64,000 bases of DNA. Source: Candidatus Omnitrophota bacterium. Lineage in GTDB: Bacteria; Omnitrophota; Gorgyraeia; Zapsychrales; Zapsychraceae. The DNA lies in assembly GCA_015233195.1 (NCBI GenBank), contig JADFYE010000005.1, positions 12,122 through 76,121 on the forward strand. The letters are read 5' to 3'. The position numbers were made by a program, and so were the translations under genes. Positions within the stretch are counted from its first letter, which is position 1. Every line of letters begins with the position of its first letter. Below, piece by piece: positions 608 through 33,508 of the stretch. The notes under the pieces were generated by a model that had not been told where the DNA came from, did no database searches, and was given only the letters and a program-made list of their open reading frames with translations.

Positions 608-1642
608 CTATTCAACCGCCACCCTCGTCCAAAGTTCAAACACCCTCGAACACGGCGCATACCATTTAGAAATCTTCGCAAAATCCCCTTTTAAGACCAT
701 CTTCTTCTGGGTCGTAGCAACGAACGGATCCAACTCCCTCTTAAACACAGCCCGCCAAACCACCTCAGGAGCTGACGTCATAAATTCCGCGTTAGCGTTA
801 TTACCGAGATTAACAATCTTCCCCTTATCAAACGTAAAACTAAAAACTTCGCCAGTCTCATCCAACTTAACTGCCAATTCCATATTCATGTTCGTCTGAC
901 TACCAAGCTGTTTCATTTTTTCATCCGCATTTACTATATCGACAATAGCCTGCATATGCTCACGCGAAAAAAATTTCTTTTTGTCATCCTGTGCCTTTGT
1001 GCAATCATCCTGAGCGTTAACGAAGGATCTCTTTTTAGATTCTTCAGGCGCTATTGCTCCTTCAGAATGACAGCCTTGCTTAAAAACTTTAGCAATAGCT
1101 TCCGTCTTAATTGCTTCTTCCAAATTCTGGATCCAGCAAAAACAATCGAATAATTCCGGGCCGACCGCTAATACACCATGATTACGCAATACAGCCAATC
1201 CCTTACCTTTTAATTCAGCCAACACAGGTGAAATATCCTGTACGGTCGGAGAATACTGCTCAATCGCCTTAACTTCACCTAAATATAATTTCGCTTCAAA
1301 TATCCGAGGCACAAAAACCGGCTGTTCAATAAAAAAACCATTAACATACGGCGTATGCGTATGAATAATAGCTTTAACATCAGGAAAATTCTTATAGATC
1401 GCAGTATGAAGCATCTTTTCAGACGTGACTTTACCAGATTCCAAAGGATTCCCGTCATTATCACAAACCAAAAGATCTTTATCAATTAATCGTCCCAAGC
1501 AAGTTTTAGTTGCAGTTAAAATAATCCGTTTATCATCAACCCGGACGCTGATATTTCCATTCAATGCGCTCGCCAAATCCTTATCCCAAAGTAATTTACC
1601 AATCTCGATAATCTCATTTTTTAATTTTTTTATATTGTCCAT
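608..1642 (-). CDS. Class II aldolase/adducin-family protein (MtnB/Ald2-like) fused to a C-terminal SCP2 sterol-carrier domain
   Basis: The N-terminal ~200 aa carry GNISVR...HTHTPY...HGVLAVG aldolase-II motifs. A low-complexity linker follows, then a ~100-aa SCP2-like fold (ELAVKLDETGEVFSFTFDKGKIVNLGN...MVLKGDFAKISKWY). The likely real start is ATG 1640-1642 (MDNIKK), with GAGG 8 nt upstream. The ORF-track start at 1660 is a TTG. Confidence 0.75.
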   Translation of the reverse strand: MDNIKKLKNEIIEIGKLLWDKDLASALNGNISVRVDDKRIILTATKTCLGRLIDKDLLVCDNDGNPLESGKVTSEKMLHTAIYKNFPDVKAIIHTHTPYVNGFFIEQPVFVPRIFEAKLYLGEVKAIEQYSPTVQDISPVLAELKGKGLAVLRNHGVLAVGPELFDCFCWIQNLEEAIKTEAIAKVFKQGCHSEGAIAPEESKKRSFVNAQDDCTKAQDDKKKFFSREHMQAIVDIVNADEKMKQLGSQTNMNMELAVKLDETGEVFSFTFDKGKIVNLGNNANAEFMTSAPEVVWRAVFKRELDPFVATTQKKMVLKGDFAKISKWYAPCSRVFELWTRVAVE

Positions 1643-1653
1643 GATTTTAACCT

Positions 1654-2130
1654 CTAACAATTTATTAAATCATAATTTGGCACAAAAGTTTTTGTTTTCG
1701 ATTGTGCAATTTGTATATTATTAAATTTTAATAAAATACTTTTATCCACGTTAACAGCCAATGGCTTCTCTCCCTCAAAAATATAAAACGGCACATTATG
1801 CTCTTTTGCTAAAATCTGCAATATCGTACCACCAACCAAAGTTTTAAGCTGATCATTTACTTTCCCATGTCCCGATACCCAAACCTCTTTTACACAACCA
1901 TGCCCAAACAAAAACCCTGCCATATTATCCGCGATAACCGTAGGTGTTATTCCATGATGCAACAACTTCCGACACGTATGCTGACACGAAGTCAGATCCG
2001 GACGACCTTCTAAAACAAACACCTCGACAGCATCTTTTTTAAAGTGATCAAAAAAATTTTTACCAAAAAACCCGTGGAGCAAAACCACGCGTTTCTGTAA
2101 TTTTTCAACTATTGGATTGGCTAATTTCAT
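1654..2130 (-). CDS. Short eIF-2B/MtnA-family paralog (Rossmann-like C-terminal half only, catalytic motif degenerate)
   Basis: 158 aa that align to the C-terminal half of the adjacent MtnA-like protein (EGRPDLTSCQ...TVIADNMAGFLF...VWVSGHGKV...NVPFYIF versus ETRPYFQG...TLIADNAVGNVM...VIVGSDRNC...NIPFYVL). The ATG overlaps the upstream stop (ATGA). Confidence 0.5.
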   Translation of the reverse strand: MKLANPIVEKLQKRVVLLHGFFGKNFFDHFKKDAVEVFVLEGRPDLTSCQHTCRKLLHHGITPTVIADNMAGFLFGHGCVKEVWVSGHGKVNDQLKTLVGGTILQILAKEHNVPFYIFEGEKPLAVNVDKSILLKFNNIQIAQSKTKTFVPNYDLINC

Positions 2131-3104
2131 TTCCGCCCCATTTCCAAAGCAATAGCTCCGCCGGTTACTAATTCATGCGGCACCACATCAAACCCGGGAT
2201 AGAATCCCCGCACGTACCCTTTAATAGCTTTCTTACCTTCATAACGCAATAATTCTTCTTCCGGTCTAATCTCAACTGGAATATCCGCAGCACTTGCCAC
2301 TTTACTTGACGGCTGAGTTAAAACATAAAACGGAATATTAAAATGTTTTGATAATACTGCGATCTGATATGTCCCGATCTTATTCGCAAAATCACCATTA
2401 GCGCAATTACGATCTGATCCGACTATCACCTTATTAACCATTTTATTCGCCATAACATTACCTACTGCATTATCTGCGATCAATGTCACATCAGCTCCTA
2501 CCTGACCTAATTCCCAAGCAGTTAATTTTGCGCCTTGAAAATACGGACGAGTTTCGGTAGCAAAAAATTTCACTTTTTTATTTTGAGCTAAACACATACC
2601 AGCAGCCATAGCTAATTCACCGCTGACATTGCAATGAGTTAAAACTGAATCGCCGTCTTTAATCACTTCAGAAATTCTTTTAACCCGATCCAAACGACTA
2701 TATCGAACCCCCTGCAAATAACTATTAATATTCTTAACCACAAACGTTTTTAAATCTTGATGCGATTCCAACGCGACCTTTGCCCAATTCACGACGATAG
2801 ATGTTACTTCAGCAAAAGGAAACGTCGGACGGCTTTTATTCAAAGCCTCAGCGATCTGCCCGATCTTTACATAAAGATCCCGATCTGAAAAATTTTTTCC
2901 TCGTTCAATCTCGACTAAAAAAATACTCAATATCACCAAAAATTGACCAAACGCGCGCGTCTTCATTTCCTTAATTACAGACACAGCTTCGTTCGTGTTT
3001 CCAACCGGAATATACTGAACTTTTTCCGGAATAGCAGTCTCGTCCAGTACATAAAGAACATCTTTATCTAAACGACAAGGCCAAAATAAAATTGAATCTT
3101 CCAT
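2127..3104 (-). CDS. mtnA: S-methyl-5-thioribose-1-phosphate isomerase-like protein (eIF-2B alpha/beta/delta family). A ribose-1,5-bisphosphate isomerase is the alternative.
   Basis: 325 aa with the family hallmarks LTHCNVSG...ATETRPYFQGAKLTAWEL...TLIADNAVG...VIVGSDRNCANGDFANKIGTYQIAV...IPFYV. Confidence 0.7.
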   Translation of the reverse strand: MEDSILFWPCRLDKDVLYVLDETAIPEKVQYIPVGNTNEAVSVIKEMKTRAFGQFLVILSIFLVEIERGKNFSDRDLYVKIGQIAEALNKSRPTFPFAEVTSIVVNWAKVALESHQDLKTFVVKNINSYLQGVRYSRLDRVKRISEVIKDGDSVLTHCNVSGELAMAAGMCLAQNKKVKFFATETRPYFQGAKLTAWELGQVGADVTLIADNAVGNVMANKMVNKVIVGSDRNCANGDFANKIGTYQIAVLSKHFNIPFYVLTQPSSKVASAADIPVEIRPEEELLRYEGKKAIKGYVRGFYPGFDVVPHELVTGGAIALEMGRK

Positions 3105-3107
3105 AAA

Positions 3108-3857
3108 TTAAATGCCTTTAATCATATTAAACGCAATATCTATCATAGCTGCTTCAGCCATGTAATAGCTTGGATTCATAAATCCCATTTCACCTGTAAT
3201 AACATTGTCGCTGACTGCCATAATCGCAACTGCCGGGATTTTATAATGATTCGCTATCGTCAAAAATGCAGAGGTAACCATATCCGCAGCAATCGCGCCT
3301 TTTGCAACTGCACCATTTATCACATCTTTAGTTTCCCGTAATAAAGCATCCGTTGTCCAGCAAGATCCCATATGAACTGCACCGACCATTGGACCAGCTT
3401 GTTTAGCAACTTCAGCTAACTTTACTGATAAATTTTTATCTGAGAACGGTATTACATCTTTACCTGCATAATACTGTGATAGACCTTCACCGCAGATAGC
3501 ACTTGTAACAACTATCAAATCACCGACTTTAATATCTTCGCGTAAAGCACCACAGCTTCCTACGCGAATCATCGCTTTGGTCGTAGCATTACAAACTATT
3601 TCAGTCGTAATACCAGTATCCGCAGAAAAACGTCCGCCATTGATGGTCGTAACTTTCTTACCATTAAATTCGCCGGTATACATGGTATATTCCATGAAAG
3701 AAAAATTCTTGACCGGATTATTAAGCTTTTTCATGACAGCTTCCATACGTTCTTTAGGACCAGGCACGATCACATATTCCCCAATATCACCCGGACGCAA
3801 TTGCACCATTCCCATTAAATCCCGACCAGTTAAATGTATTTCACGTTTCATTGTCAT
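3108..3857 (-). CDS. Purine nucleoside / 5'-methylthioadenosine phosphorylase (PNP/UDP-1 family, DeoD-like)
   Basis: 249 aa with the VIVPGPKER...RVGSCGAL...VGDLIVV pattern of hexameric PNP. GGAG lies 6 nt upstream of the ATG. Its stop is 3 nt from the mtnA-like start. Confidence 0.75.
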   Translation of the reverse strand: MTMKREIHLTGRDLMGMVQLRPGDIGEYVIVPGPKERMEAVMKKLNNPVKNFSFMEYTMYTGEFNGKKVTTINGGRFSADTGITTEIVCNATTKAMIRVGSCGALREDIKVGDLIVVTSAICGEGLSQYYAGKDVIPFSDKNLSVKLAEVAKQAGPMVGAVHMGSCWTTDALLRETKDVINGAVAKGAIAADMVTSAFLTIANHYKIPAVAIMAVSDNVITGEMGFMNPSYYMAEAAMIDIAFNMIKGI

Positions 3858-3957: not shown

Positions 3958-5451
3958 TTATAATTTTGTTTTATCAATTTTCCCCGTTCTATTCTTCGGT
4001 AATTCTTTCCTTACTTCAAAATTATGCGGCACTTTAAAATGCGCTAAATGTTCTTTCATAAATGCCCGAAGATCCTCGATCGCAACATTCTCACCTTCTT
4101 TAAATACCACAAACGCTTTAATAGTTTCTCCCCGTAATTTATCAGGAATTCCTATAACCGCGGCTTCCGCCACACTTGGATGTTTATATAACGCCGACTC
4201 CACTTCAGGCGCCATCACCAATTGACCGCCCACCTTGATCATTTCTTTTTTCCGTCCCATGATATATAAAAATCCGTTCTCATCAAAACGACCCAGATCG
4301 CCCGTATATAAACCGTCTTTTCGTTTAATCTCTGCAGTCAACTCAGGATCTTTGTAATATTCTTTCATGATATAATCGCCTGCAATCACAATCTCACCCA
4401 CAGCGCCTTGCGGCAATTCTTTTCCCTCATCGCTCACGATCCTGATCGTCGAAAAAGGCGACGGTTTCCCCACACTCGCGATATTATCGCTATTCTTCAA
4501 AGGCGTTACTGTATTAGGCGGACACGTTTCAGTCATGCCCCATCCGTTCAACAATACCGCATTCGGACAATATTGATGAAACCTTGCTAAAATTTCTGGC
4601 GAGCTTGGCGCGCCGAATACTACCACCCAGCGCAAAGACGACAAATCAAAATTTTCAATGTGTTTCAAAGTAAGAATCGCGTTATACATAGGCGGCACAA
4701 TATGAAAACATGTTACTTTAAACTGCTGAACCAATTCCAAAAACTGCATAGGATTAAAACGATCCATCAATACCAAAGTAATCCCAAATAAAAGCATATT
4801 TTGAATATAAATTAACCCAGCGATATGGCTCAAAGGTAAGGCACAAAGTTTGATATCTTTATCCGTTAGGTCAACAAAGTATTCCATTGCCTTAGGCGAG
4901 CCGTCTAAATGTTTATATGTCAATAAAATGCCTTTAGGTTTTCCAGTTGTCCCCGACGTATACATAATAAGCGCAGGATCGGAATCTTTAATTTCCACTG
5001 ATAATGCGACAGCAGAAGATTTTGCCATTAATTCGCCGTATTTCAGCGAGCCTTCAACATTTCCATCCAGCAAAATAATTTTTTTAAGTTTCGGCAATTG
5101 CTTACATACAGCATTCAAATCAACATCTGGTCGTCCCAACGCAATCAATACCTTGGCTTCCGAGTGGCTCAAACACGAAACCAGTTCATCTTCTTTCAAC
5201 ATAAAGTCCAGCGGCACGCCAACTCCACCCAAACAAAATACAGTCAGATAACTAAACACATACTGCGGACAATTAGGCAAATAAATACCAACAGCATCGC
5301 CTTTTCCAATCCCCTGTGTTCGTAACACATTGGTAAGCCTCAAAACCTGATCTTGTAACTGCGCAAAATTAATTACCTGATCTTTAAATATCAAAGCAGG
5401 TTTGGACGCGTATTTCTTTGCTTGTGCGGTTAAAATATCATTGATTTTCAT
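3958..5451 (-). CDS. AMP-dependent acyl-CoA synthetase/ligase (long-chain-fatty-acid--CoA ligase-like)
   Basis: 497 aa with the AMP-binding motif YTSGTTGKPKG and a C-terminal GRKKEMIKVGG...LPKNRTGKIDK. Confidence 0.85.
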   Translation of the reverse strand: MKINDILTAQAKKYASKPALIFKDQVINFAQLQDQVLRLTNVLRTQGIGKGDAVGIYLPNCPQYVFSYLTVFCLGGVGVPLDFMLKEDELVSCLSHSEAKVLIALGRPDVDLNAVCKQLPKLKKIILLDGNVEGSLKYGELMAKSSAVALSVEIKDSDPALIMYTSGTTGKPKGILLTYKHLDGSPKAMEYFVDLTDKDIKLCALPLSHIAGLIYIQNMLLFGITLVLMDRFNPMQFLELVQQFKVTCFHIVPPMYNAILTLKHIENFDLSSLRWVVVFGAPSSPEILARFHQYCPNAVLLNGWGMTETCPPNTVTPLKNSDNIASVGKPSPFSTIRIVSDEGKELPQGAVGEIVIAGDYIMKEYYKDPELTAEIKRKDGLYTGDLGRFDENGFLYIMGRKKEMIKVGGQLVMAPEVESALYKHPSVAEAAVIGIPDKLRGETIKAFVVFKEGENVAIEDLRAFMKEHLAHFKVPHNFEVRKELPKNRTGKIDKTKL

Positions 5452-5759: not shown

Positions 5760-7061
5760 TTATCTAAAACTTAGGTCAGTAGGCGCGCGGCCCAATTCCT
5801 GCAGTAAAATTTTGGCAGATTCAATCTGAGCATCTAAAGACTCATGTTGATGCGCCCTTCCAGGATAAATTTCATATAAAGGTCGTTTTTCCAAAGGTGT
5901 TACATTAAGCATCATTGAATTAGCTCCAGATAAAAACGCCAAACGGCGCGCAGTCATATCCAAAGTTTCAAGACCAGTAGTTACTAATATTTTTACATGA
6001 GGCAATAAAAAAAATCTGGCAGATGATAGAGTATGAATTATTTCATCAACTGTAGGTGCTGGATGTTTTGCTAACGGAGTATATGGATGAGGCAAAAACG
6101 GTCCCATACTTAACATTTCAACATTCAGCTCCCCTGCTAATTCTATATCACTACTTATATCAGCATGAGTCTGCCCAGGCAAACCTATCAAAGACCCAGT
6201 AATTATTAAATACCCCAATTCATTCGCAGTTTTCAGATCTTGTAATCGGTCTTCAAACTTTGAACCAGGATGCATCTTAGAATATAAATCTGAATTTGAA
6301 GTTTCAAACCGCAACAATAACCCCCTAGCACCTGCAGCGTATAAACGTTTTAAACCATCCGTACCAACTTCGCCAAAACTAATAAAAATTAAAACTCCAA
6401 AACGTTTTTTTATCTCAGCAACAAGGTCAATAAGCTCATCAATCGGACGACCACGGTCTTCACCGCTTTGCAATACCAGCGCTTTAAACCCATAAACCTC
6501 AACCGCAATTCGCACAGACTCCAATATCTCGTCTTTAGACATTCGATATCTGGTTAAACTAGTATTCAATGCCGAAATCCCACAATAATGACAAACCTGG
6601 TCACACTCATTGCCAATTTCGATTATCCCATGCACGCAGCAAGAATTACCGTGATACTGATGTCTCAAATGATGTGCCGCGTTTTTAATAAACTCACGTT
6701 CACCAGCATCTTTCGCAGATAATAAATATTCCAATTCCTCTCGCAATATCCGTCCACCTGCAGCAACTTTATCATACATATCCCGGACTTTTGTATATTT
6801 CGCTCCAGCCCAAGGCATTTGTTTTACGCTAGCATCGTCAATATCTTTTAACTCAAAAAAAAGATCTTTCCATGTCTCTAGAGTTGTTTCAGCCTCTTTC
6901 TGACTTACCCGAGTTATAACAAAACCACCTTGTGCATATACATAATCGCCCACGCTTAATCCAGTTAACTCATTAATGGCTTTCTTCTCTTCGCCAAAAT
7001 AATCAACCAAAGCAAATTTACCTTCAAATGCTTTAACTTTTCCAGGAATAGCGTAACACAT
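5760..7061 (-). CDS. Fusion protein: N-terminal HypC/HupF-like [NiFe] hydrogenase maturation domain plus radical SAM domain (HydE/BioB/PylB-like)
   Basis: The N-terminus MCYAIPGKVKAF...VGDYVYAQGGFVITRVSQKEAETTLETWKDL is HypC-like, including the essential Cys2. Then come a CxxxCxxC cluster (CDQVCHYCG), LVLQSGED, ETSNSDLYSKMHPGSKFEDRL and GSLIGLPGQT, as in HydE/BioB-type radical SAM enzymes. GGAG lies 7 nt upstream of the ATG. Confidence 0.75.
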   Translation of the reverse strand: MCYAIPGKVKAFEGKFALVDYFGEEKKAINELTGLSVGDYVYAQGGFVITRVSQKEAETTLETWKDLFFELKDIDDASVKQMPWAGAKYTKVRDMYDKVAAGGRILREELEYLLSAKDAGEREFIKNAAHHLRHQYHGNSCCVHGIIEIGNECDQVCHYCGISALNTSLTRYRMSKDEILESVRIAVEVYGFKALVLQSGEDRGRPIDELIDLVAEIKKRFGVLIFISFGEVGTDGLKRLYAAGARGLLLRFETSNSDLYSKMHPGSKFEDRLQDLKTANELGYLIITGSLIGLPGQTHADISSDIELAGELNVEMLSMGPFLPHPYTPLAKHPAPTVDEIIHTLSSARFFLLPHVKILVTTGLETLDMTARRLAFLSGANSMMLNVTPLEKRPLYEIYPGRAHQHESLDAQIESAKILLQELGRAPTDLSFR

Positions 7062-7078: not shown

Positions 7079-7414
7079 TTATACGATCTCTGTGATAAAA
7101 AATTCTTTTCCAGAAGGGAGTAGCGTGCCAAGCTTACGGCACTGAGGACACTGAAGATCAGAACCTTTTTTAGGATATTGAATATTACACGTCTTGCATT
7201 CTAGCAAAGCAGGCTTGAATTTCACTTCTAAAACAGTATTAGATAACACAGTATCAGCTATCATTTGTTCCCAATATAATCTGATACATCCCTCATCAAA
7301 ACCTAGCAATTCTCCTACGATCAAAACCGCTTTTTTAGGGTGTGGAATATTTTTATCTTTGACCGCTGCTAAAGCTTCAGCTACGACTTTCTGGACTTGA
7401 TGAACCTCATGCAT
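7079..7414 (-). CDS. hypA: Hydrogenase nickel-insertion protein HypA
   Basis: Starts MHEVHQV... and has two CxxC pairs (CKTC...CPQC). The ATG overlaps the echF stop by 8 nt. Confidence 0.8.
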   Translation of the reverse strand: MHEVHQVQKVVAEALAAVKDKNIPHPKKAVLIVGELLGFDEGCIRLYWEQMIADTVLSNTVLEVKFKPALLECKTCNIQYPKKGSDLQCPQCRKLGTLLPSGKEFFITEIV

Positions 7415-7742
7415 GGAACACGTCCTTATACCGTTTTTCAGAACAAGCAGCATATTTAGTATCCAGCACTAAACATTTTTTCGGACAAATTTCTACACAA
7501 GCATTACAGGATACACAACGCAGCCGGTCGATCTCCCAGCCTTTTTGTTCTTTAGTTACTACTATCGCTGCTGTCGGACATTTACGTTGACATAAGCCGC
7601 AGAAAATACATTTATCAATCTCGATTAAAACTTTACCACGAGTGCCAACAAAATATTTTTTCTCAACAAAAGGATATCTTTCAGTAACTGGACGACTGAA
7701 AAGATTGGATAACACTGATTTTGCCATTACTAATAATTTCAT
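7407..7742 (-). CDS. echF: Ech hydrogenase subunit F (2x[4Fe-4S] ferredoxin, NuoI-like)
   Basis: 111 aa with two CxxCxxCxxxCP motifs (CIFCGLCQRKCP, CVSCNACVEICP). Confidence 0.8.
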   Translation of the reverse strand: MKLLVMAKSVLSNLFSRPVTERYPFVEKKYFVGTRGKVLIEIDKCIFCGLCQRKCPTAAIVVTKEQKGWEIDRLRCVSCNACVEICPKKCLVLDTKYAACSEKRYKDVFHA

Positions 7743-7745
7743 ATA

Positions 7746-8825
7746 TTACCTCTCCGCACAGCTGATACAAGGATCAATAGTCAATACTAATATAGGAACA
7801 TCCGCCAACTGACATCCTTTCAGAATTTCCAACAAAGGCGTAATATTAGCGAATGTCGGAGTCCTGACTCTAAGCCTTTGCAAAAATTTAGTGCCATTAG
7901 CTTTAGCATAATAAATAACTTCACCGCGCGGCTGTTCAGAACGCGCAAAAAATTCTCCGTTCGGGAAACCAGTAACCTTAGCCTCAATTACGCCTTCTTT
8001 CATTTGTTGGACACATTTTTCAATTATATCAATTGATTGCGCCAACTCACGAATACGAACTTTACAACGGCTATAACAATCTCCCTCCGTCTCAACTATA
8101 GGCGCAAACCCAATCTTGCCATAAGCAGCATAGCCCATCATACGGATATCCATTGCTACTCCGCTGGCTCTAAGCATTGGACCTACCGCACCTAACGCCT
8201 TAGCATTTTCAGTAGTTAAAATTCCAACGCCCTGGGTACGATGTTTTACTGTGGTATCATCTAAAAATACCATACCCAGATCATTAATCTTTTTTTGGTA
8301 AACCCGTAATTTTTTAACAATCTCTTCTAATTTAGCCGGCGCAATATCCCGACGCACGCCTCCGACTTTAGCCGAACCAAAAATAACCCGACCCCCAGTG
8401 GTCTCTTCAATTATATCCAAAATATATTCGCGGATTTTCCAAGATTCCATGAAAAGACTTTCAAAACCAAACCCGTCAGCAGTCAAACCTAACCAAAGTA
8501 AATGACTATGTATACGGGAAAGCTCAGACCAGATAGTACGTAAATATTGCGCGCGTTCTGGCACTTCAATCTTCATCAACTCTTCCACTGCCATACAATA
8601 AGTAAGACCATGGATAAAACTGCATATGCCGCAGATACGTTCTGCCACATATGTATATTCTTGAAAATCTTTTTTCTCAACCAATTTTTCCAACCCACGA
8701 TGAATAAATCCTATGGACGGTATAGCTTCAACCACTTTCTCATCTTCCAAAACCAAATCCAAATGTATTGGCTCTGGAAGTACTGGATGCTGAGGACCAA
8801 AAGGAATGATCGTCCGTTTACTCAT
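7746..8825 (-). CDS. echE: Group 4 [NiFe] hydrogenase large subunit (EchE, NuoD-like)
   Basis: The N-terminal RICGICSFIHGL and C-terminal DPCISCAER motifs are the Ni-Fe ligand sites. The start was taken at MSKRTIIPFGPQHP, avoiding a 70-nt overlap with echD. Confidence 0.85.
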   Translation of the reverse strand: MSKRTIIPFGPQHPVLPEPIHLDLVLEDEKVVEAIPSIGFIHRGLEKLVEKKDFQEYTYVAERICGICSFIHGLTYCMAVEELMKIEVPERAQYLRTIWSELSRIHSHLLWLGLTADGFGFESLFMESWKIREYILDIIEETTGGRVIFGSAKVGGVRRDIAPAKLEEIVKKLRVYQKKINDLGMVFLDDTTVKHRTQGVGILTTENAKALGAVGPMLRASGVAMDIRMMGYAAYGKIGFAPIVETEGDCYSRCKVRIRELAQSIDIIEKCVQQMKEGVIEAKVTGFPNGEFFARSEQPRGEVIYYAKANGTKFLQRLRVRTPTFANITPLLEILKGCQLADVPILVLTIDPCISCAER

Positions 8826-9189
8826 GGCTCGTCTCCTTTGGTTTCTCGTCTTGATTGAACGCGTGTTTGATTCCTGTACGATAAAATTCACCTTTATAAT
8901 CCACTGCTATATTCTCCACTTTAACATCAAACAAATCATGAATTTCATTTTCATAAAGAAAAGCACTCAAATATACAGCGCTGATACTTGGCACTGGAGT
9001 TGACGTATCTTTAAGAATTATTTTAAAACTTTGATACACATAATCTTTATCAAAAGAATATTGTAACTCCAAACATTCAGGCAATTTGGTGCAACAAATC
9101 TGTACTAAACGCCAGCCTTCATATTTTAATTCACGAACTTTTGCCAAAAGGCTATCCAAAGTTATCTCCACTATAGTTTGCTGTATCAT
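8818..9189 (-). CDS. echD: Ech hydrogenase subunit D (NuoC-like 30-kDa subunit)
   Basis: 123 aa similar to NuoC, placed between the small and large subunit genes with 4-8 nt overlaps. Confidence 0.7.
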   Translation of the reverse strand: MIQQTIVEITLDSLLAKVRELKYEGWRLVQICCTKLPECLELQYSFDKDYVYQSFKIILKDTSTPVPSISAVYLSAFLYENEIHDLFDVKVENIAVDYKGEFYRTGIKHAFNQDEKPKETSHE

Positions 9190-9629
9190 TTTTTCACCTC
9201 TTCAGCCAGGCTTGCCGCCTTTTTTTTCTCTAAAATTCCCAATGCTTTTACTACCGCATCAATAAGTGCTTCTGGTCTTATTGGACACGAAGGAGCATAA
9301 ACATCAACTGGAACAACTTTATCTGCCCCGCCCAAAACATTATAACATTCCCTAAATACCCCGCCTGAAGTTGCGCATATACCAACTGCTATCACTACTT
9401 TAGGATTCGGCATCTGGTTATAAATATTTTGTACTACTGGTTTGTTTTGCTCATTTATCGACCCAGTCAATAAAAGTATATCCGCATGTTTTGGGTTACC
9501 CGTATTAATTACCCCAAAACGTTCTACGTCATACCTAGGCATCAAGGATGCTAAAACTTCAATATCACAGCCATTACAACTTGATCCATCATAATGAATT
9601 ATCCACGGTGATTTTGATAAAACACTCAT
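9186..9629 (-). CDS. echC: Group 4 [NiFe] hydrogenase small subunit (EchC, NuoB-like)
   Basis: Carries the proximal-cluster motifs CNGCD, GICATSGG and APSCPIRPE. Confidence 0.85.
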   Translation of the reverse strand: MSVLSKSPWIIHYDGSSCNGCDIEVLASLMPRYDVERFGVINTGNPKHADILLLTGSINEQNKPVVQNIYNQMPNPKVVIAVGICATSGGVFRECYNVLGGADKVVPVDVYAPSCPIRPEALIDAVVKALGILEKKKAASLAEEVKK

Positions 9630-9630
9630 A

Positions 9631-10500
9631 TTAACCCCTTATCATAAGATAAATAATATTCGCTCCGCCTAAAACTAAAGCCACTAACCAAGAACTTGCA
9701 ACCAAAGCTTGCCATCTTACTCTGGCAGTAGCATTATCAATTAACATTTGAGATAAAAATACTAACAATGACACGCTTAAACCCACCCAAACATTCGAAG
9801 CAAAAAATAAATAAACAATAGCTAAAACAAAAACATTTTCATACCAATGCGCCATTTCAATAATCGCTAAAGTCTTACCTGAAAACTCAGTAGTAATCCC
9901 TTTTACTAATTCTTGGTGAGCATGATGAGAAGTGGAAAGATCAAACGGAGATTTACGAAACTTAATTGGTAAAATAAAAAAGAAAGCTAGAAAAACGCCA
10001 GGCAAAACCATAATTAAAGATTTTGGATAATGAATTATATCTGTGATTTGAAAACTTTTAGTAACCATGTACATGCCAACTGCAACCATCATTAAAGCTG
10101 GTTCATATGACATCATTTGCAAAGCTTCCCTATGCGCGCCAATAACGCTATAAGGTGAACTGGCTTTAAAACCACCTAACACAAAAAATACTCCGGCTAA
10201 AGTTAATGCAAATATGATAAGTAAAAGATCTCCGCCTGCAAAAAATAATGCTCCAGTAAATACTGTCAGAACAAAAAAGAATTCTATATACAAAGTTTGT
10301 GAAGGACGCACCACCAAAGTTTCCTTTTTAAATAATTTAAGCACATCATAAAAAGGCTGTAATATCGGAGGTCCGATCCGATTCTGCATACGTGCTGTTA
10401 CTCTTCGATCCAGACCAGCTAATAACCCGCCTACGATTGGTGCTAAAACTAAATATGAAAGTAATATCTTAATTGACATATTACGCTCCCCCCAAAACAA
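9631..10500 (-). CDS. echB: Ech hydrogenase membrane subunit B (NuoH-like)
   Basis: 289 aa, polytopic and hydrophobic, in the operon position of EchB. Confidence 0.7.
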   Translation of the reverse strand: MFWGERNMSIKILLSYLVLAPIVGGLLAGLDRRVTARMQNRIGPPILQPFYDVLKLFKKETLVVRPSQTLYIEFFFVLTVFTGALFFAGGDLLLIIFALTLAGVFFVLGGFKASSPYSVIGAHREALQMMSYEPALMMVAVGMYMVTKSFQITDIIHYPKSLIMVLPGVFLAFFFILPIKFRKSPFDLSTSHHAHQELVKGITTEFSGKTLAIIEMAHWYENVFVLAIVYLFFASNVWVGLSVSLLVFLSQMLIDNATARVRWQALVASSWLVALVLGGANIIYLMIRG

Positions 10501-12373
10501 ATAATCCCAAGACGAACAATACGCCTAAGATCACGCCCAAATACATGAGCCGTTCCTCATTAAAATAATCATTTAAATAATAATTTTTCATTTCCATATC
10601 TTTAACTTCTAAAGCAGCTTGATATTGACCCTTGTGCCCTACATTTGCCCCAGCTAAATACGGATCAGATAATTTAACCCCGCTTCCATAATCTAAAAAT
10701 GTCAATGGGAACAAACATACCATTAAAAGCATAATACCCATAATAACAATATTTCCTTTACTTAATACCATCACGTTTCCGTATATCGCTGCAACATATG
10801 GATCAATTAAATTATGTGCCACCCAGGCAAAAAATCCGCATATAAAAACCGTTAATACTGACAATGTTCCCATTGCAATCCATTGACCAGTAGGTATACC
10901 TTTTTCAATATTCTCATATGGTTTATCTACTATTAAAACTTTGCCTAACCACTTCACCCAGAAAAATAAAGTAGCTGCACTACCAAAAATCAAAAATACC
11001 GCTGAAAAAGGACTAAAATCTATCATCGCCCGTAATACTGCCCATTTACTTATAAGCATACCAAACGGCGCTAAAAACATACCTGCAATTCCAATCTGCA
11101 ACATAACTGAAACCTTTGGCATACGCACAATCAAACCTGTCATATCTTCAACCTGACGGCTTCCGGTTTCATGCTCAATACCGCCCACGCATAAAAACAA
11201 AAGCCCCTTAGCAACCGCATGGAAAATTATCAATAAAATACCTGCCCAAACCGCTTCGTATGTTCCAACGCCCGCGCATAAAATTATTAAACCTAAGTTA
11301 GCTATAGTAGAATATGCCAATATTTTTTTAGCGTCATTTTGACTAATACAAATAAATGATCCAATCAAAAATGTAATTAACCCGACCATAGCAACAAACA
11401 AACCTAAAGTTGTACCCTGTAATTGATGAGCAAAACGTAATACCAAATAAACACCCGCCTTTACCATCGTACTAGAGTGAAGCAATGCTGAAACAGGCGT
11501 AGGCGCTACCATTGCCCCGACCAGCCATGAAGAACAAGGTAATTGTGCTGATTTAGTTAACCCAGCAAAACATAACAAAGCTACAGGCAATAAAACTAAA
11601 GTACCAGGTAAACTCATCATCTCATTTAACGCAATAGTGTGATGGGTCTTAAACAGCACGATTATTCCGATCAAAAAAGCTAAACCACCCAACAAATTCC
11701 ATCGTAACGCTAAAAATGAATTTGCAATGGATTGGTCATCTTGTTTATAACCAATCAAAATAAATGAGCAAACTGTTGTTATCTCCCAGAAAAATAATAA
11801 CCACATCAAATTATTAGAGAAGCAAACCCCAAACATCGCAGAAAGGAAAATAAAAATGAGACCTAGAAACAGCGGTCTTCTATCTTTTACTTCTTCATGA
11901 TGAGCATGAAAATCTTCCATATATCCTACTGCATACATGGCTATCAAACTTCCGATCACGCCGATAATCAAGCCCATGATCACTGAAAATAGATCAATAA
12001 ACAAATTGTTCTCTACATGCGCTGAATGACCAGCCCCAAAATGGAACCATAATAAAAGTCCGGTTTGAACAGCAATTAAAATTGAAACAATCATATCTTT
12101 ACGTCTTAACGCCAAAAATAAAATATAAGCCGCAAGCAAAACCTCAATAATCAACATAAAAGGCTCAATCCAACTAAAATGAGCAGGAACAAAGATTGGT
12201 GAACCTTTAAGCCCAATAGCTAAAAGTCCAATCGACACCACAATTAAAACTATAACCCCAGGATAAATAAATTTCTTAAATAAAGACGACCAACGGTTGA
12301 CCAAAGCTAAAGCGCCTATTAATAAAGGGAAAAGCATTAAGAAATACAGCAAGAACGGAACGTGGTTTTGCAT
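10481..12373 (-). CDS. echA: Ech hydrogenase membrane subunit A (NuoL/MnhA-like antiporter subunit)
   Basis: 630 aa with about 16 predicted helices and NuoL-type motifs. First gene of the echABCDEF operon. Confidence 0.75.
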   Translation of the reverse strand: MQNHVPFLLYFLMLFPLLIGALALVNRWSSLFKKFIYPGVIVLIVVSIGLLAIGLKGSPIFVPAHFSWIEPFMLIIEVLLAAYILFLALRRKDMIVSILIAVQTGLLLWFHFGAGHSAHVENNLFIDLFSVIMGLIIGVIGSLIAMYAVGYMEDFHAHHEEVKDRRPLFLGLIFIFLSAMFGVCFSNNLMWLLFFWEITTVCSFILIGYKQDDQSIANSFLALRWNLLGGLAFLIGIIVLFKTHHTIALNEMMSLPGTLVLLPVALLCFAGLTKSAQLPCSSWLVGAMVAPTPVSALLHSSTMVKAGVYLVLRFAHQLQGTTLGLFVAMVGLITFLIGSFICISQNDAKKILAYSTIANLGLIILCAGVGTYEAVWAGILLIIFHAVAKGLLFLCVGGIEHETGSRQVEDMTGLIVRMPKVSVMLQIGIAGMFLAPFGMLISKWAVLRAMIDFSPFSAVFLIFGSAATLFFWVKWLGKVLIVDKPYENIEKGIPTGQWIAMGTLSVLTVFICGFFAWVAHNLIDPYVAAIYGNVMVLSKGNIVIMGIMLLMVCLFPLTFLDYGSGVKLSDPYLAGANVGHKGQYQAALEVKDMEMKNYYLNDYFNEERLMYLGVILGVLFVLGLFVLGGA

Positions 12374-16445: not shown

Positions 16446-17418
16446 CTTTAAGATATTTTACATAATCAGCTACTGCATAAGTTAAAGATGTGAACGGTTT
16501 TTTGTAACCGTTCGCACGCAACTTGGTCATATCTGCTTGAGTAAAATACTGGTATTTATCATGTAATATTTCGGGCATCGGAATATATTCAATATTAGTT
16601 TTCTTACCTACCGCCTTAAATAATGCATTTGCCAAATCATTCCAAGACTTGGCTTCGCCGGTACCTACGTTAAAAATCCCGTTAACTTGCGGATTATTAA
16701 AAAAATACATGACCACGTCAACCGCATCTTTTACATAAATAAAATCGCGTTTTTGCTCACCATCAGAATAATCTTGACGATGCGACTTAAATAAAACCAT
16801 TTTTCCTTCTTCAGCCACTTTCTTATAAGCTTTATTAACCACACTTCGCATATCTTCTTTATGATATTCATTCGGACCAAAAACATTAAAAAATTTCAAA
16901 CCAACAATACGATCCAAATAATGATTCTCTAACGCCCAAATATCAAAATCCTGTTTTGACTGACCGTACAAATTCAACGGTTTACATTTTCGCACCGTAT
17001 CATCATCGTCTTTGTAGCCTTCCCCACCGTCGCCATAAGTCGCAGCAGAACTAGCGTAAATAAAACGAATTTCATTCTTTAGCGCCCAATTCGCCAAAAT
17101 ACGGGTATATTCTAAATTATTTTCCTGAAAATATTTCGCATCTTGTACAGTAGTAGAACTGCATGCGCCCATATGTATTACTACTGATATCGGAACATCC
17201 AGCTTATTGCCGGTAACCAAATCTAAAAAATCCGTTTTATCATAATATTTTATATATTTTTTGCCGATTAAATTACGGGCTTTAATATCTGTGGTTGTAT
17301 CAGGAGTTAAATTATCCTCAAAATGATCCACTATTATTAGATCATCAAATCCCAATTCATTGAGCCGGGCAACAATACAACTACCAATAAACCCAGCCCC
17401 ACCTGTAATAATTTTCAT
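16429..17418 (-). CDS. hldD: ADP-L-glycero-D-manno-heptose 6-epimerase
   Basis: MKIITGGAGFIGS...YASSAATYG...FNVFGPNEYHKEDMRSVV is typical of HldD/RfaD. Confidence 0.85.
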   Translation of the reverse strand: MKIITGGAGFIGSCIVARLNELGFDDLIIVDHFEDNLTPDTTTDIKARNLIGKKYIKYYDKTDFLDLVTGNKLDVPISVVIHMGACSSTTVQDAKYFQENNLEYTRILANWALKNEIRFIYASSAATYGDGGEGYKDDDDTVRKCKPLNLYGQSKQDFDIWALENHYLDRIVGLKFFNVFGPNEYHKEDMRSVVNKAYKKVAEEGKMVLFKSHRQDYSDGEQKRDFIYVKDAVDVVMYFFNNPQVNGIFNVGTGEAKSWNDLANALFKAVGKKTNIEYIPMPEILHDKYQYFTQADMTKLRANGYKKPFTSLTYAVADYVKYLKDGKCW

Positions 17419-17439
17419 ATATACCTTCTTTTTGAATTC

Positions 17440-18054
17440 TTACTTTATTACTTCTACTGCCCGCTGGCGTTCTTCTTCCGCCAATATCCACTTTGCCAAA
17501 TTCTGCCCCATATTCCGAGCCATTTTTGCCCAATCACCTTTTTTTATCGAAACACTTTGAGTATCTTTAAATATAAACACAGTTTTTCCAGTCTCTACTT
17601 CTTTTAATTTTCCCTCCAGAGTCAATGTCATATTCTTTCGACGTAAAATATGACGTTGAAAAAATGAAGGTGTATCCATGGCATCAATAGTACCGGAAAT
17701 ATTAAAATTCGGCTTTAAATCTTTATCCGAAAATATTAAATCTATCTTAGACTTTTCAAATTCTTTGCCTTGTGATTCATACACATCCATGAATCCGCGG
17801 ACTATCATTACAGAAACAGTATCTGACTCTGGACCAGCCGAAACTTCTGTTCCAGGTAAAAACGGCATTATCATTAAATTCCCGCCTTTACGCAGCAATT
17901 CAGTATCAATAATTTTTGTTTCTTTAAGATAAGTCGGCAAATAAGAAACTTCAACAGCAGAAACTGCCGGCTTCTTTTTTAATTTTAGAGCATGACTGCA
18001 TCCAGAAGCTGAAAACAGTACTAATATAATTAATACTAAAATATAAGATTTCAT
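17440..18054 (-). CDS. Lipoprotein, function unknown
   Basis: Signal peptide with the lipobox LFSASGCS. Confidence 0.55.
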   Translation of the reverse strand: MKSYILVLIILVLFSASGCSHALKLKKKPAVSAVEVSYLPTYLKETKIIDTELLRKGGNLMIMPFLPGTEVSAGPESDTVSVMIVRGFMDVYESQGKEFEKSKIDLIFSDKDLKPNFNISGTIDAMDTPSFFQRHILRRKNMTLTLEGKLKEVETGKTVFIFKDTQSVSIKKGDWAKMARNMGQNLAKWILAEEERQRAVEVIK

Positions 18055-31434: not shown

Positions 31435-32472
31435 TTAAACTAAAATTAGTTCACCTTGATCAACCACAGAATCAACTTTTAAAAGACATACAATATCTTT
31501 CTTTATCTGCTTTGCTATAGCAAGCGCAAAATTAACTGGCACTGCATTTCCAACCATTTTATATCCATCCGCCAAACCTTTATATTTGAAAATAAAGCTA
31601 TCCGGAAAAGTTTGGACTCTAGCGCATTCTCTTATGGACAGCCGCCTATACAATTTTTCTTTTCCAGGCACAAAAATACGCTTATCTTGTTCCACAAAAA
31701 GCATCTTAGGTGCCTGCGGATGAATAGGCGCATGCCGCCCCCCTGCTTGAATAGTATACGAAGGCTCATCCCAACCCCTGACCCGATTCCTCGACATAAA
31801 AATTGTTGAAAAACTTCCAGTCATATATTCATGATTAGGAACTTTTAAAAAATTTTCCTTGGTCCTATTAAATTCAGCTGCTGGAACAGCGGAATCTTTT
31901 AAATCCCAAATTGCATCCCTCAAATTAAGCGGAGCTTTAGGCGAAGGGAATTGATACGATATTCCCAAATCTTTTCGATAACCTACAAAAATAACTCTCC
32001 AACGCTCCTGCGGAACATCATAGTAATTTACATTAAGCAGGTCATACTTGACATTATAACCCGCATCACTAAATTGCTCTAAAATACTATTAAAAGCTTT
32101 GCCATGTTTTTGATGTAACATGCCTGAAACATTTTCAGCTAAAAAAAACAATGGTTTCTTATCCCGAAGAATTCTGATATATTCCCAAAAGACTTTACCT
32201 CTTTTATCATTTATACCTCTACCCGCTCCTGCTTCACTCCAACTTTGGCACGGTGGTCCGCCGATAATGCCATCAGTATCTGGTATAGCCGAAGATGGAA
32301 CATCTAAAATACTCCGCTGGTCCAACTCTACTCTTGGGAAATTATATTTAAATGTTTCCCAAATTGTTGGATCATATTCATTCGCCCATTTAATTAAAAA
32401 ACCGGCTTTTTCAAATCCCAAGTCTAGCCCACCTGCGCCAGCGAATAAAGATACAACCTGCAACTTCTTCAT
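31435..32472 (-). CDS. DNA (cytosine-5)-methyltransferase
   Basis: The m5C-MTase motifs occur in canonical order: FAGAGG (I), GGPPCQSWS (IV), ENV (VI), QERWRV (VIII) and GNAVP (X). Confidence 0.85.
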   Translation of the reverse strand: MKKLQVVSLFAGAGGLDLGFEKAGFLIKWANEYDPTIWETFKYNFPRVELDQRSILDVPSSAIPDTDGIIGGPPCQSWSEAGAGRGINDKRGKVFWEYIRILRDKKPLFFLAENVSGMLHQKHGKAFNSILEQFSDAGYNVKYDLLNVNYYDVPQERWRVIFVGYRKDLGISYQFPSPKAPLNLRDAIWDLKDSAVPAAEFNRTKENFLKVPNHEYMTGSFSTIFMSRNRVRGWDEPSYTIQAGGRHAPIHPQAPKMLFVEQDKRIFVPGKEKLYRRLSIRECARVQTFPDSFIFKYKGLADGYKMVGNAVPVNFALAIAKQIKKDIVCLLKVDSVVDQGELILV

Positions 32473-32490
32473 TTTTTAATCCTTATAAAG

Positions 32491-33351
32491 TTAATTCATT
32501 ACAAATTTTACTAATTTCGCATCAATAAATTTAGCCGGATTATCTGGATTCTTAATCTTAACATCTGCTATAGAAAAAATATCTCTTCCAGCTTTTTCGA
32601 ATTCATCACGATCAACTTTTGGAAAACTTTGATATTTAGAATTTCTCATCAATGCAAATAAAGTGAATTTATTATTCTTATTACATTCGGTTATATAATC
32701 AAAAACTTTAACCGGATTTTCTATAGCCCACATACCTCTAATACGAAGGTTTGTTATCCCCATGGGATCAACTTGGTTTACCCTACCTAATTCTTTAGTT
32801 TCCGATAATTCTACATCATTTATATCCTTAACGCCTTCTACAATTTTATTTTTAATTCGTTCATAAACCTTATTGTTTGCCGCATAACAATCGCCATAAA
32901 TCATCCACAGCGTCTTGAGTTTAGTTTTATCTGACGCATCCAATACACCTATTGAATAAATAATATCCTTAATATCCCATTTTTCACATTTTTTACATGC
33001 CAGGGTAAGCATGTCACTATCAGAGTAAAGTTTCGACTTTGGATACGAGCTATTAAGCGCAATCTCATTTTTTAATCCTTCAATTTTTTTTACTTCAACC
33101 GCGTCCCCACCTGAAACAATAAAATCAGGCGGATTATTTTGATTACCAATATACGACAAAAATTCTCCATAAATTTTATCTTTGTTATTAATGGATGACA
33201 CATTTAGTGAATTGCAAAAAATATCTTTTAAAAAATATTCCAAAGCAATCCCCATACTATTAATTCTATTAGAACTAGAATAAACCTGCATTAAATCATT
33301 TCTATTAAAAGTCACAAGATTTAAAATGGCTTTTAGTATATTGGTTGACAT
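32491..33351 (-). CDS. Type II restriction endonuclease (PD-(D/E)xK fold), partner of the adjacent m5C methyltransferase
   Basis: PPDFIVSGGDAVEVKK fits PD...(D/E)xK. The gene is 18 nt downstream of the MTase on the same strand. The start was taken at MSTNILK. Confidence 0.55.
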   Translation of the reverse strand: MSTNILKAILNLVTFNRNDLMQVYSSSNRINSMGIALEYFLKDIFCNSLNVSSINNKDKIYGEFLSYIGNQNNPPDFIVSGGDAVEVKKIEGLKNEIALNSSYPKSKLYSDSDMLTLACKKCEKWDIKDIIYSIGVLDASDKTKLKTLWMIYGDCYAANNKVYERIKNKIVEGVKDINDVELSETKELGRVNQVDPMGITNLRIRGMWAIENPVKVFDYITECNKNNKFTLFALMRNSKYQSFPKVDRDEFEKAGRDIFSIADVKIKNPDNPAKFIDAKLVKFVMN

Positions 33352-33508
33352 CTTAAATCTCCTGGAAATTCTTATATTTTTATATTTAATAACCAAAAAA
33401 ACCATTTAAACAATATTTACATTATCTACAATTGATATTATATTGCCAATCACAAAAATTTATATCGAAAATTTAATTACTACGATATCATTAACTGGCA
33501 AAATCAAA

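Follow-up and report, generated by a model that had tools for sequence, protein, structure and literature searches.

A HypC domain fused to a HydE-like radical SAM enzyme as a candidate [NiFe]-hydrogenase maturase of Omnitrophota

Why should a chaperone domain of [NiFe]-hydrogenase maturation be fused to a radical S-adenosylmethionine (SAM) enzyme? The question is raised by a 64,000-nucleotide stretch of DNA (hereafter the window) from a Candidatus Omnitrophota bacterium (contig JADFYE010000005.1, positions 12,122 to 76,121), in which the last gene of an echABCDEF-hypA cluster encodes a HypC domain followed by a HydE-like domain. The assembly of the [NiFe] cofactor has been described as needing six Hyp proteins, A to F, in all organisms. 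Radical SAM enzymes do not appear in a 2025 review of [NiFe]-cofactor biosynthesis, which names the anaerobic source of CO as the most pressing open question of the field (PMC12134894). The first-pass annotation of this DNA had likewise noted the absence of radical SAM enzymes from canonical maturation and the unsettled anaerobic source of CO. The searchable literature yielded no account of a HypC-radical SAM fusion, nor of HydG or tyrosine in [NiFe] maturation. As judged from sequence comparison, the fusion protein is probably a dedicated [NiFe]-hydrogenase maturase in which a HydE radical SAM domain that has taken on a new function is tethered to a HypC domain that carries iron. The best reading of its genomic surroundings is a radical SAM route that would deliver a tyrosine-derived Fe-carbonyl/cyanide unit to [NiFe] hydrogenases.

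Is the fusion a true single gene? The 433-amino acid (aa) protein is read from one unbroken open reading frame (ORF) at 5760..7061 and starts with MCYAIPGKV. The ATG lies 17 nt from the hypA stop codon and is preceded by a ribosome-binding site, GGAG, 8 nt on its 5′ side. The position given in the first-pass annotation stands, with the one correction that the gene is on the minus strand. The other statements of that annotation on the gene were borne out. The gene directly follows hypA on the same strand (ORFs and Pfam) and is thus the last of the cluster, the N-terminus is HypC-like with the essential Cys, the motifs CDQVCHYCG, LVLQSGED, and GSLIGLPGQT are all read in the translation, and the two domains belong to a single gene rather than to two joined genes. 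A frameshift or annotation artefact is ruled out because more than 120 clusters and numerous contigs of independent origin show the same two-domain architecture.

The domains were assigned by hidden Markov model searches. Pfam HupF_HypC covers residues 1-64 with 54.1 bits (cutoff 28.5), Radical_SAM covers residues 147-308 with 56.6 bits, and BATS covers residues 324-403. The radical SAM part had been assigned to the HydE/BioB/PylB/HmdB branch, and the searches narrow this down to HydE. The top NCBIfam model is HydE TIGR03956, with 231.4 bits, which is below the equivalog cutoff of 254.6, while the PylB, BioB, and HmdB models give 123.5, 97.6, and 73 bits against cutoffs of 348.2, 225, and 320.9, respectively. 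The T. maritima HydE aligned end to end with residues 93-427 (213 bits). An AlphaFold2 model built on a 60-sequence alignment is one confident protein (predicted local distance difference test 92.4; predicted template modelling score 0.91). In a Foldseek search, the best solved structure was T. maritima HydE (5fep), with a template modelling score of 0.93 and a root-mean-square deviation of 1.9 Å, and the matches take in forms of HydE with bound complex B, the cysteine-bound Fe(CO)2(CN) synthon made by HydG. The features of the gene and its operon are collected in Table 1.

Table 1. Positions of the fusion gene, its domains and motifs, and the other genes of the hydrogenase operon in the window.
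Feature	Position	Strand	Basis
HypC-HydE-like fusion gene, 433 aa, last of ech-hypA operon	5760..7061	-	ORF; Pfam HupF_HypC, Radical_SAM and BATS; kept architecture
HypC domain, residues 1-75	6837..7061	-	Alignment to HypC structures 2z1c, 3vyr, 3d3r, 2ot2
Cys2 codon of HypC domain	7056-7058	-	Invariant in 60 fusions
Gln44 codon, in place of conserved HypC His	6930-6932	-	Invariant in 60 fusions
HydE-type radical SAM (beta-alpha)8 barrel, residues 93-427	5781..6785	-	T. maritima HydE 213 bits; Foldseek; TIGR03956
CX3CX2C radical SAM cluster motif, C153/C157/C160, CDQVCHYC	6582..6605	-	Invariant in fusion and canonical sets
Subfamily signature C141-C142-V143-H144	6630..6641	-	Differential conservation, 76 fusions versus 119 canonical sequences
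hypA, Ni metallochaperone, full length, CxxC...CxxC zinc site	7079..7414	-	Pfam HypA 66 bits; TIGR00100
EchF-like 2x[4Fe-4S] subunit	7407..7742	-	Fer4 families
[NiFe] large subunit, EchE-like, RICGIC...DPCISCAER	7746..8891	-	Complex1_49kDa and NiFeSe_Hases; both Cys motifs
EchD-like subunit	8818..9189	-	Complex1_30kDa
[NiFe] small subunit, EchC-like	9186..9629	-	Oxidored_q6 106 bits
EchB-like membrane subunit	9631..10500	-	NADHdh 168 bits
EchA-like antiporter-type membrane subunit, first operon gene	10481..12373	-	Proton_antipo_M 185 bits

The HypC domain resembles HypC, HybG, and HupF (such as E. coli HypC, 2OT2, and its T. kodakarensis counterpart, 2Z1C) in its OB-fold with a C-terminal helix, in its Pfam PF01455 score above the threshold, and in its place in a hydrogenase/hypA operon. 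Residues 1-67 align with the solved HypC proteins. The Met-Cys start is shared, and Cys2, which becomes residue 1 after removal of the Met, is invariant. Unlike those proteins, the domain is covalently joined to a radical SAM enzyme, and its TIGR00074 score of 38.5 bits is under the cutoff of 48. Moreover, the position of E. coli His51, in the VHxGFA motif, is occupied by Gln44, in YAQGGF. I take His51 of canonical HypC to be used for binding of Fe and CO2.

What has happened to the active site of the HydE domain? I compared 76 fusion-type sequences with 119 canonical HydE sequences, using the T. maritima numbering. The radical SAM cysteines are kept in the fusions. The upper pocket, in which complex B binds and reacts, is also kept (E58, Q107, R159, R180, T268/T269, Y303, and Y306), as are M224 and M291, the methionines that carry the Fe(I)(CO)2(CN)S species and that correspond to Met316 and Met384 of the window protein. 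Residues E58, Q107, R159, M224, M291, and T268/T269 are conserved in 71-76 of the 76 fusions. On the other hand, the S3 product site is replaced. R54 is His in all 76 fusions (R in 113 of the 119 canonical sequences), T134 is Phe in 73 (T in 110 of the canonical sequences), and R155 is Gly or Ala in all 76 (R in 110). Four residues have been reported to touch the cyanides of the Fe(I) dimer product, and these are three of them (PMC11826987). The Thr and the two Arg of the S3 site are conserved and matter for [FeFe] maturation, which is impaired by the mutation of one of them (PMC10114646).

The fusions have gained residues of their own at and around this site. T. maritima positions 51-52 correspond to Cys141-Cys142 of the window protein, and Cys is found at position 52 in 76/76 and at position 51 in 67/76 fusions. 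The stretch C141-C142-V143-H144 therefore stands where T. maritima HydE has V51-H52-x-R54. V289 and G226 are both Ser in the fusions, and K309 is mostly Arg. In the window protein, the other signature residues are F226, G247, S318, and S382, and the diagnostic signature of the subfamily in T. maritima numbering is C52, H54, F134, G155, S226, and S289. Its core is also borne by three HypC-less sisters of the fusion clade, while the standalone HydE encoded beside a fusion at locus L051 has the canonical residues. Compared with HydE structures (T. maritima; PDB 3IIZ, 5FEP, 7O1O, and 8QMK), the fusion shares the full-length sequence and fold, CX3CX2C, the BATS region, the upper pocket, and the partnership with HydG described below. 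It differs in the N-terminal HypC domain, the exchanged residues, the lack of the auxiliary-cluster cysteines, and a conserved C-terminal PTDL extension. Thus, the fusion resembles both HydE and HypC yet lacks the defining features of each, namely the HydE equivalog score, the S3 residues, and the association with HydA and HydF on one side, and the HypC His, the partnership with HypD, and the TIGR00074 cutoff score on the other.

Is this fusion common? The first-pass annotation had suggested a search of other genomes. At least 120 clusters at 90% identity have the two-domain architecture with a length of about 433 aa, mostly from metagenome-assembled genomes (MAGs) of Omnitrophota. The best 120 clusters are 53-94% identical to the window protein, and all 120 are two-domain proteins. 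When 1.84 billion representatives were searched exhaustively, the combination of a HypC domain and a HydE-like body turned up in about 22 clusters at 50% identity. I looked for a cultured carrier, and every named member is a MAG. The database labels of the members vary among HydE, HypC, radical SAM protein, and biotin synthase.

About 85 related loci were gathered from genomes and metagenomes, and the neighbouring genes were tabulated in flanks of at most 10 kb. Across about 75 related loci, the fusion co-occurs with Ech, Mbh, and group 3b [NiFe] hydrogenases, and three arrangements were recognised. In arrangement A, which is that of the window, echABCDEF-hypA is followed by the fusion and often then by a CbiM/PDGLE Ni/Co transporter component. 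It is found in relatives of at least 63% identity and in the divergent L015 (53%); L032 is an exception without a hypA match. In arrangement B, found in relatives of about 50% identity, the order is an Mbh/Mrp-type group 4 hydrogenase, HycI, a short HypA, the fusion, Rex, and HydG. In arrangement C, a group 3b hydrogenase is followed by HycI, usually HypA, and the fusion, and HydG is usually nearby. The large subunit has both Ni-Fe Cys pairs at 41 loci, covering the Ech, Mbh, and group 3b types. HypA, HycI, and the CbiM/NikM and NicO transporters are neighbours of the fusion across the related loci. The length of the C-terminal tail of the large subunit tracks the presence of HycI: the Ech type has neither a tail (0 aa) nor HycI, and the tail measures 30-35 aa in Mbh-type and 8-9 aa in group 3b hydrogenases. 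Since the large subunit encoded in the window stops at the DPCISCAER motif, with a tail of 0 aa, no protease is needed.

Several side observations were made in these neighbourhoods. The HypA of the Mbh- and 3b-type loci is only 80-84 aa long (L008 9747-9989, L040 8473-8715, L034 18951-19205, and others). It keeps the MHE nickel-binding N-terminus and covers approximately positions 1-68 of the 116-position HypA model. The short HypA of L040 has no CxxC motifs, whereas the HypA of the window is full length with both CxxC pairs. A gene for the redox-sensing repressor Rex was found in L008 (11312-11965) and ten other genome loci, in most cases directly between the fusion gene and hydG and in a few cases elsewhere in the flanks. 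This placement suggests NADH/NAD-responsive control of the maturation genes. In one divergent lineage, L088, a standalone 76-aa HypC is encoded directly before the fusion (9766-9996), and an extra, unrelated 373-aa radical SAM gene ends the 3b hydrogenase operon (16474-17595).

The second radical SAM gene of arrangements B and C was found to be a bona fide HydG. It scores 463 bits with TIGR03955 (cutoff 312), and its alignment with the T. italicus HydG structure (443 bits) extends over the whole length, the C-terminal domain of the auxiliary cluster included. HydG is adjacent in most of the non-Ech loci that have enough flank. Furthermore, HypC, HydE, and HydG form a single polypeptide in four independent lineages, all beside [NiFe] genes. 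These are L016 (921 aa; on a complete Omnitrophota chromosome), L040 (915 aa; after Mbh-HycI-HypA), P0123 (906 aa; five contigs from independent samples, after a 3b operon and HycI), and P0131 (881 aa; beside the genes of the [NiFe] small and large subunits and a short HypA). That the three domains serve a common pathway is strongly supported by the triple fusions. The earlier suggestion of an analogy to HydE/HydG thus gained support from the relatives, in which HydG is adjacent or fused beside [NiFe] genes and never beside [FeFe] genes; the window itself has no HydG.

The HydG partners fall into two HydG lineages. One has the canonical CX2CX22C motif and is used by divergent fusions and two of the triple fusions. 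The Omnitrophota-type HydG (L008 11970-13466; 92 of the 120 best HydG homologues) has a C-x5-C motif and an extra Cys in RTG[KE]C, where the canonical counterpart is CX2C...RTGDR. I considered CTAGYRC...RTG[KE]C as a [NiFe]-specific signature of HydG and rejected it as a general one. The same Cys shift occurs in a 70% identical HydG of Thermodesulfovibrio, which is encoded inside a canonical [FeFe] operon (HydA, TM1266-like, aspartate ammonia-lyase, HydG, HydF, and HydE), and some [NiFe]-linked HydGs have the canonical motif. From these two facts, it looks as if an ordinary HydG has been recruited at least twice. Wherever the context was examined, a HydG with the extra Cys was [NiFe]-linked, and some [NiFe]-linked HydGs lack this Cys (it is His in L040); the extra Cys is lineage-specific.

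Are the other Hyp proteins encoded nearby? In tblastn searches with E. coli queries over the 85 loci and the window (1.13 Mb), HypC was matched at 61 loci (by the fusion itself), HycE at 42, HycI at 37, and HypA at 24, and there was no match for HypB, HypD, HypE, or HypF. Signature-motif scans, which were validated on E. coli, agreed that HypD and the others are missing from these loci. This sets the fusion apart from HypC, whose scaffold partner is HypD and whose gene usually adjoins hypD. For the 64-kb window, family searches together with tblastn confirmed the earlier remark that it contains no hypB, hypD, hypE, or hypF. The most economical reading of neighbourhoods without HypD/E/F is that the fusion route replaces these proteins.

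The [FeFe] hydrogenase HydA was found in none of the fusion loci, while the same queries and motifs do detect it in Thermodesulfovibrio control loci. HydF was found at only three fusion loci, where a full HydF-HydG-HydE set lies immediately upstream of a group 3b hydrogenase (L018 2-3316, L051 412-4365, and L052 29-3505). The order there is HydF, HydG, canonical HydE, 3b hydrogenase, HycI, HypA, and the fusion, and no HydA was found within 20 kb. Since a canonical standalone HydE coexists with the fusion at these three loci, the HydE domain of the fusion is a paralogue with a role of its own. It is also reported that published Omnitrophota MAGs have one hydrogenase type each and that those with group 3b or 4g enzymes have no second hydrogenase (PMC8542988), which fits a [NiFe] client. 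The paper on the Omnitrophota of Ace Lake lists no hyp or hyd terms in its supplementary tables.

How might the fusion protein work? From the observed domain identities, residue patterns, genomic linkage, and fusions, I infer each chemical step of the following scheme as well as the replacement of HypD/E/F by the HydG/fusion route. HydG, which for the window genome would be encoded outside the window, would cleave tyrosine and produce complex B. The HydE-like domain would take complex B into its conserved upper pocket, where the 5′-deoxyadenosyl radical would attack the cysteine sulfur, as in canonical HydE. The attack would free a mononuclear Fe-carbonyl/cyanide unit, which Met316 and Met384 may hold. 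In the [FeFe] pathway, the two-iron product is normally positioned by the S3 site. In the fusion, this site has been rebuilt by R54H, T134F, R155G, and the Cys141-Cys142 pair, which may prevent the dimerisation of the mononuclear unit. The unit would then be handed to Cys2 of the tethered HypC domain, and the HypC domain would dock on the apo large subunit and insert the iron unit. HypA would then add nickel, and HycI would cleave the C-terminal tail where there is one; the Ech type of the window has none.

This scheme would share its first half with the HydG-HydE-HydF pathway of [FeFe] maturation, in which HydG makes CO and CN on Fe from tyrosine and a HydE-type enzyme follows, and relatives of the window protein have both enzymes fused. 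In contrast to that pathway, the HydF scaffold is missing in nearly all fusion loci, the client would be the [NiFe] large subunit, and the product would be mononuclear rather than the [Fe2S2(CO)4(CN)2] dimer. HypX, the aerobic CO synthase, is comparable in being an accessory enzyme from which HypC-bound iron would receive a diatomic ligand. However, it differs in fold and chemistry; it acts on formyl-tetrahydrofolate and coenzyme A, is compatible with oxygen, and works with HypCD, while the fusion would use anaerobic radical SAM chemistry. A more far-reaching version of the proposal is that Omnitrophota and several other uncultured lineages mature [NiFe] hydrogenases without HypD/E/F, with all three ligands coming from tyrosine via HydG and with the HypC-fused HydE paralogue converting the synthon to mononuclear Fe(CN)2(CO) and inserting it. 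I regard this version as tentative, with the balance tilted somewhat against it.

Several points weigh against the proposed route. Complex B has two CO and one CN, while the [NiFe] site has one CO and two CN, and the proposed route gives no account of the conversion. With each complex B, HydG sets free an additional cyanide (PMC10114646), which might in principle be used for it. In the Ech-type set, no HydG was found in the flanks (64 kb for the window and at most 10 kb for the nine loci), so that the partnership with HydG is only extrapolated to the lineage of the window; the Ech-type proteins share all signature residues with the relatives that are adjacent or fused to HydG. No hydrogenase is encoded near the fusion at L012, L029, or L030. 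The HydF-HydG-HydE sets at three loci could mean that those genomes have an [FeFe] enzyme elsewhere. The neighbour-joining tree that places the HypC-bearing sequences apart from canonical HydE lacks bootstrap support. Finally, hypD/E/F and hydA were judged from the flanks, and the support for the mechanism is of the comparative-genomic kind. With this qualification, the idea of the first-pass annotation that the fusion is a candidate for a new step of [NiFe] ligand biosynthesis has held up.

What else could the fusion do? HydG and the fusion might supplement a canonical HypCDEF set encoded elsewhere, providing CO or Fe-CO under anoxia while cyanide still comes from carbamoyl phosphate via HypE/HypF. 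Even for organisms with all Hyp proteins, the origin of CO under anaerobic conditions has yet to be explained (PMC12134894), the short flanks leave room for hypDEF elsewhere, and the standalone HypC adjoining the fusion in L088 would be in keeping with such a supplement. Nevertheless, not a single HypD/E/F was found in 1.13 Mb around about 75 loci, although HypA, HycI, the HypC domain, and Ni transporters cluster there. The HypC domain has no equivalent of His51, and HydG yields CN besides CO. I thus consider the supplementary role unlikely, though it deserves to be kept in mind. It is quite improbable that the radical SAM domain catalyses another reaction, such as a modification of the large subunit or of a small-molecule ligand, instead of acting on the product of HydG, with HypC serving as a targeting domain only. 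The remodelled pocket could take another substrate, and such a reaction is more plausible for the Ech-type lineage, where the window and nine loci have no HydG within 10 kb. However, the Ech-type proteins carry every signature residue of their HydG-linked relatives, the complex-B pocket is kept, and the four triple fusions tie the subfamily to HydG.

The fusion could also be the organism's HydE for [FeFe] maturation, with the HypC-like OB-fold as an accessory or carrier domain and with the proximity to [NiFe] genes being incidental. Many members are indeed named "[FeFe] hydrogenase H-cluster radical SAM maturase HydE" by NCBI, the nearest HydG relatives outside the group belong to the canonical Thermodesulfovibrio operon, and HydF is present at L018, L051, and L052. 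Nevertheless, HydA is in none of the fusion loci while the [NiFe] large subunit is in 41, the window protein scores under the HydE equivalog cutoff, and the S3 residues important for [FeFe] maturation are replaced. A canonical HydE and the fusion occur in the same cluster, and Omnitrophota MAGs with group 3b or 4g are reported to have no second hydrogenase (PMC8542988). An [FeFe] role is therefore very improbable.

If the more far-reaching version is true, the [NiFe] cofactor would have a second, radical SAM-based biosynthetic route, and an evolutionary bridge would join [FeFe] and [NiFe] maturation. The proposed maturase role would also mean that two systems thought to be unrelated have exchanged parts. 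The fusion offers a concrete, testable candidate for a radical SAM pathway in which tyrosine supplies CO, and possibly CN, to the [NiFe] site. The residue signature separates the fusion subfamily from the true [FeFe] maturases, whose name many members now carry, and this matters for the inference of hydrogen metabolism from metagenomes. A compact maturation module could also aid the heterologous production of [NiFe] hydrogenases.

The hydrogenase of the window is of the group 4 Ech type, since the Ni-Fe ligand motifs RxCGxC and DPCxxCxx[HR] are present together with five partner subunits. The hypA and ech genes upstream of the fusion are on the same strand with tight spacing. The listed hypA ORF spans 7079-7453, and the MHE at 7414 is the likelier start. 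A scan for promoters and terminators of the operon gave counts no higher than in shuffled sequence. HydG was searched for in the 64-kb window and not found, and the other approximately 50 kb contain housekeeping genes with no further hyp or hyd gene found. Just downstream of the fusion, at 608-3857 on the minus strand, lie genes for a PNP_UDP_1 purine/MTA-type phosphorylase, an SCP2-tailed class II aldolase, and an IF-2B-family isomerase, of which there is also a second, short copy. The set resembles the dihydroxyacetone phosphate shunt for the salvage of 5′-deoxyadenosine and methylthioadenosine, which are by-products of radical SAM enzymes, and its synteny is seen in L001 only. An AMP-binding gene of the acyl/aryl-CoA ligase type lies 308 nt downstream of the fusion (3958-5451, minus strand). 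It is probably outside the module because its position is kept only in the closest relative, L001. Essentially all credible genes of the window are on the minus strand, and a co-directional stretch of this length is unusual. At 31435-33405 on the same strand, adjacent genes for a C-5 cytosine DNA methylase and an NgoPII-family endonuclease form a type II restriction-modification pair.

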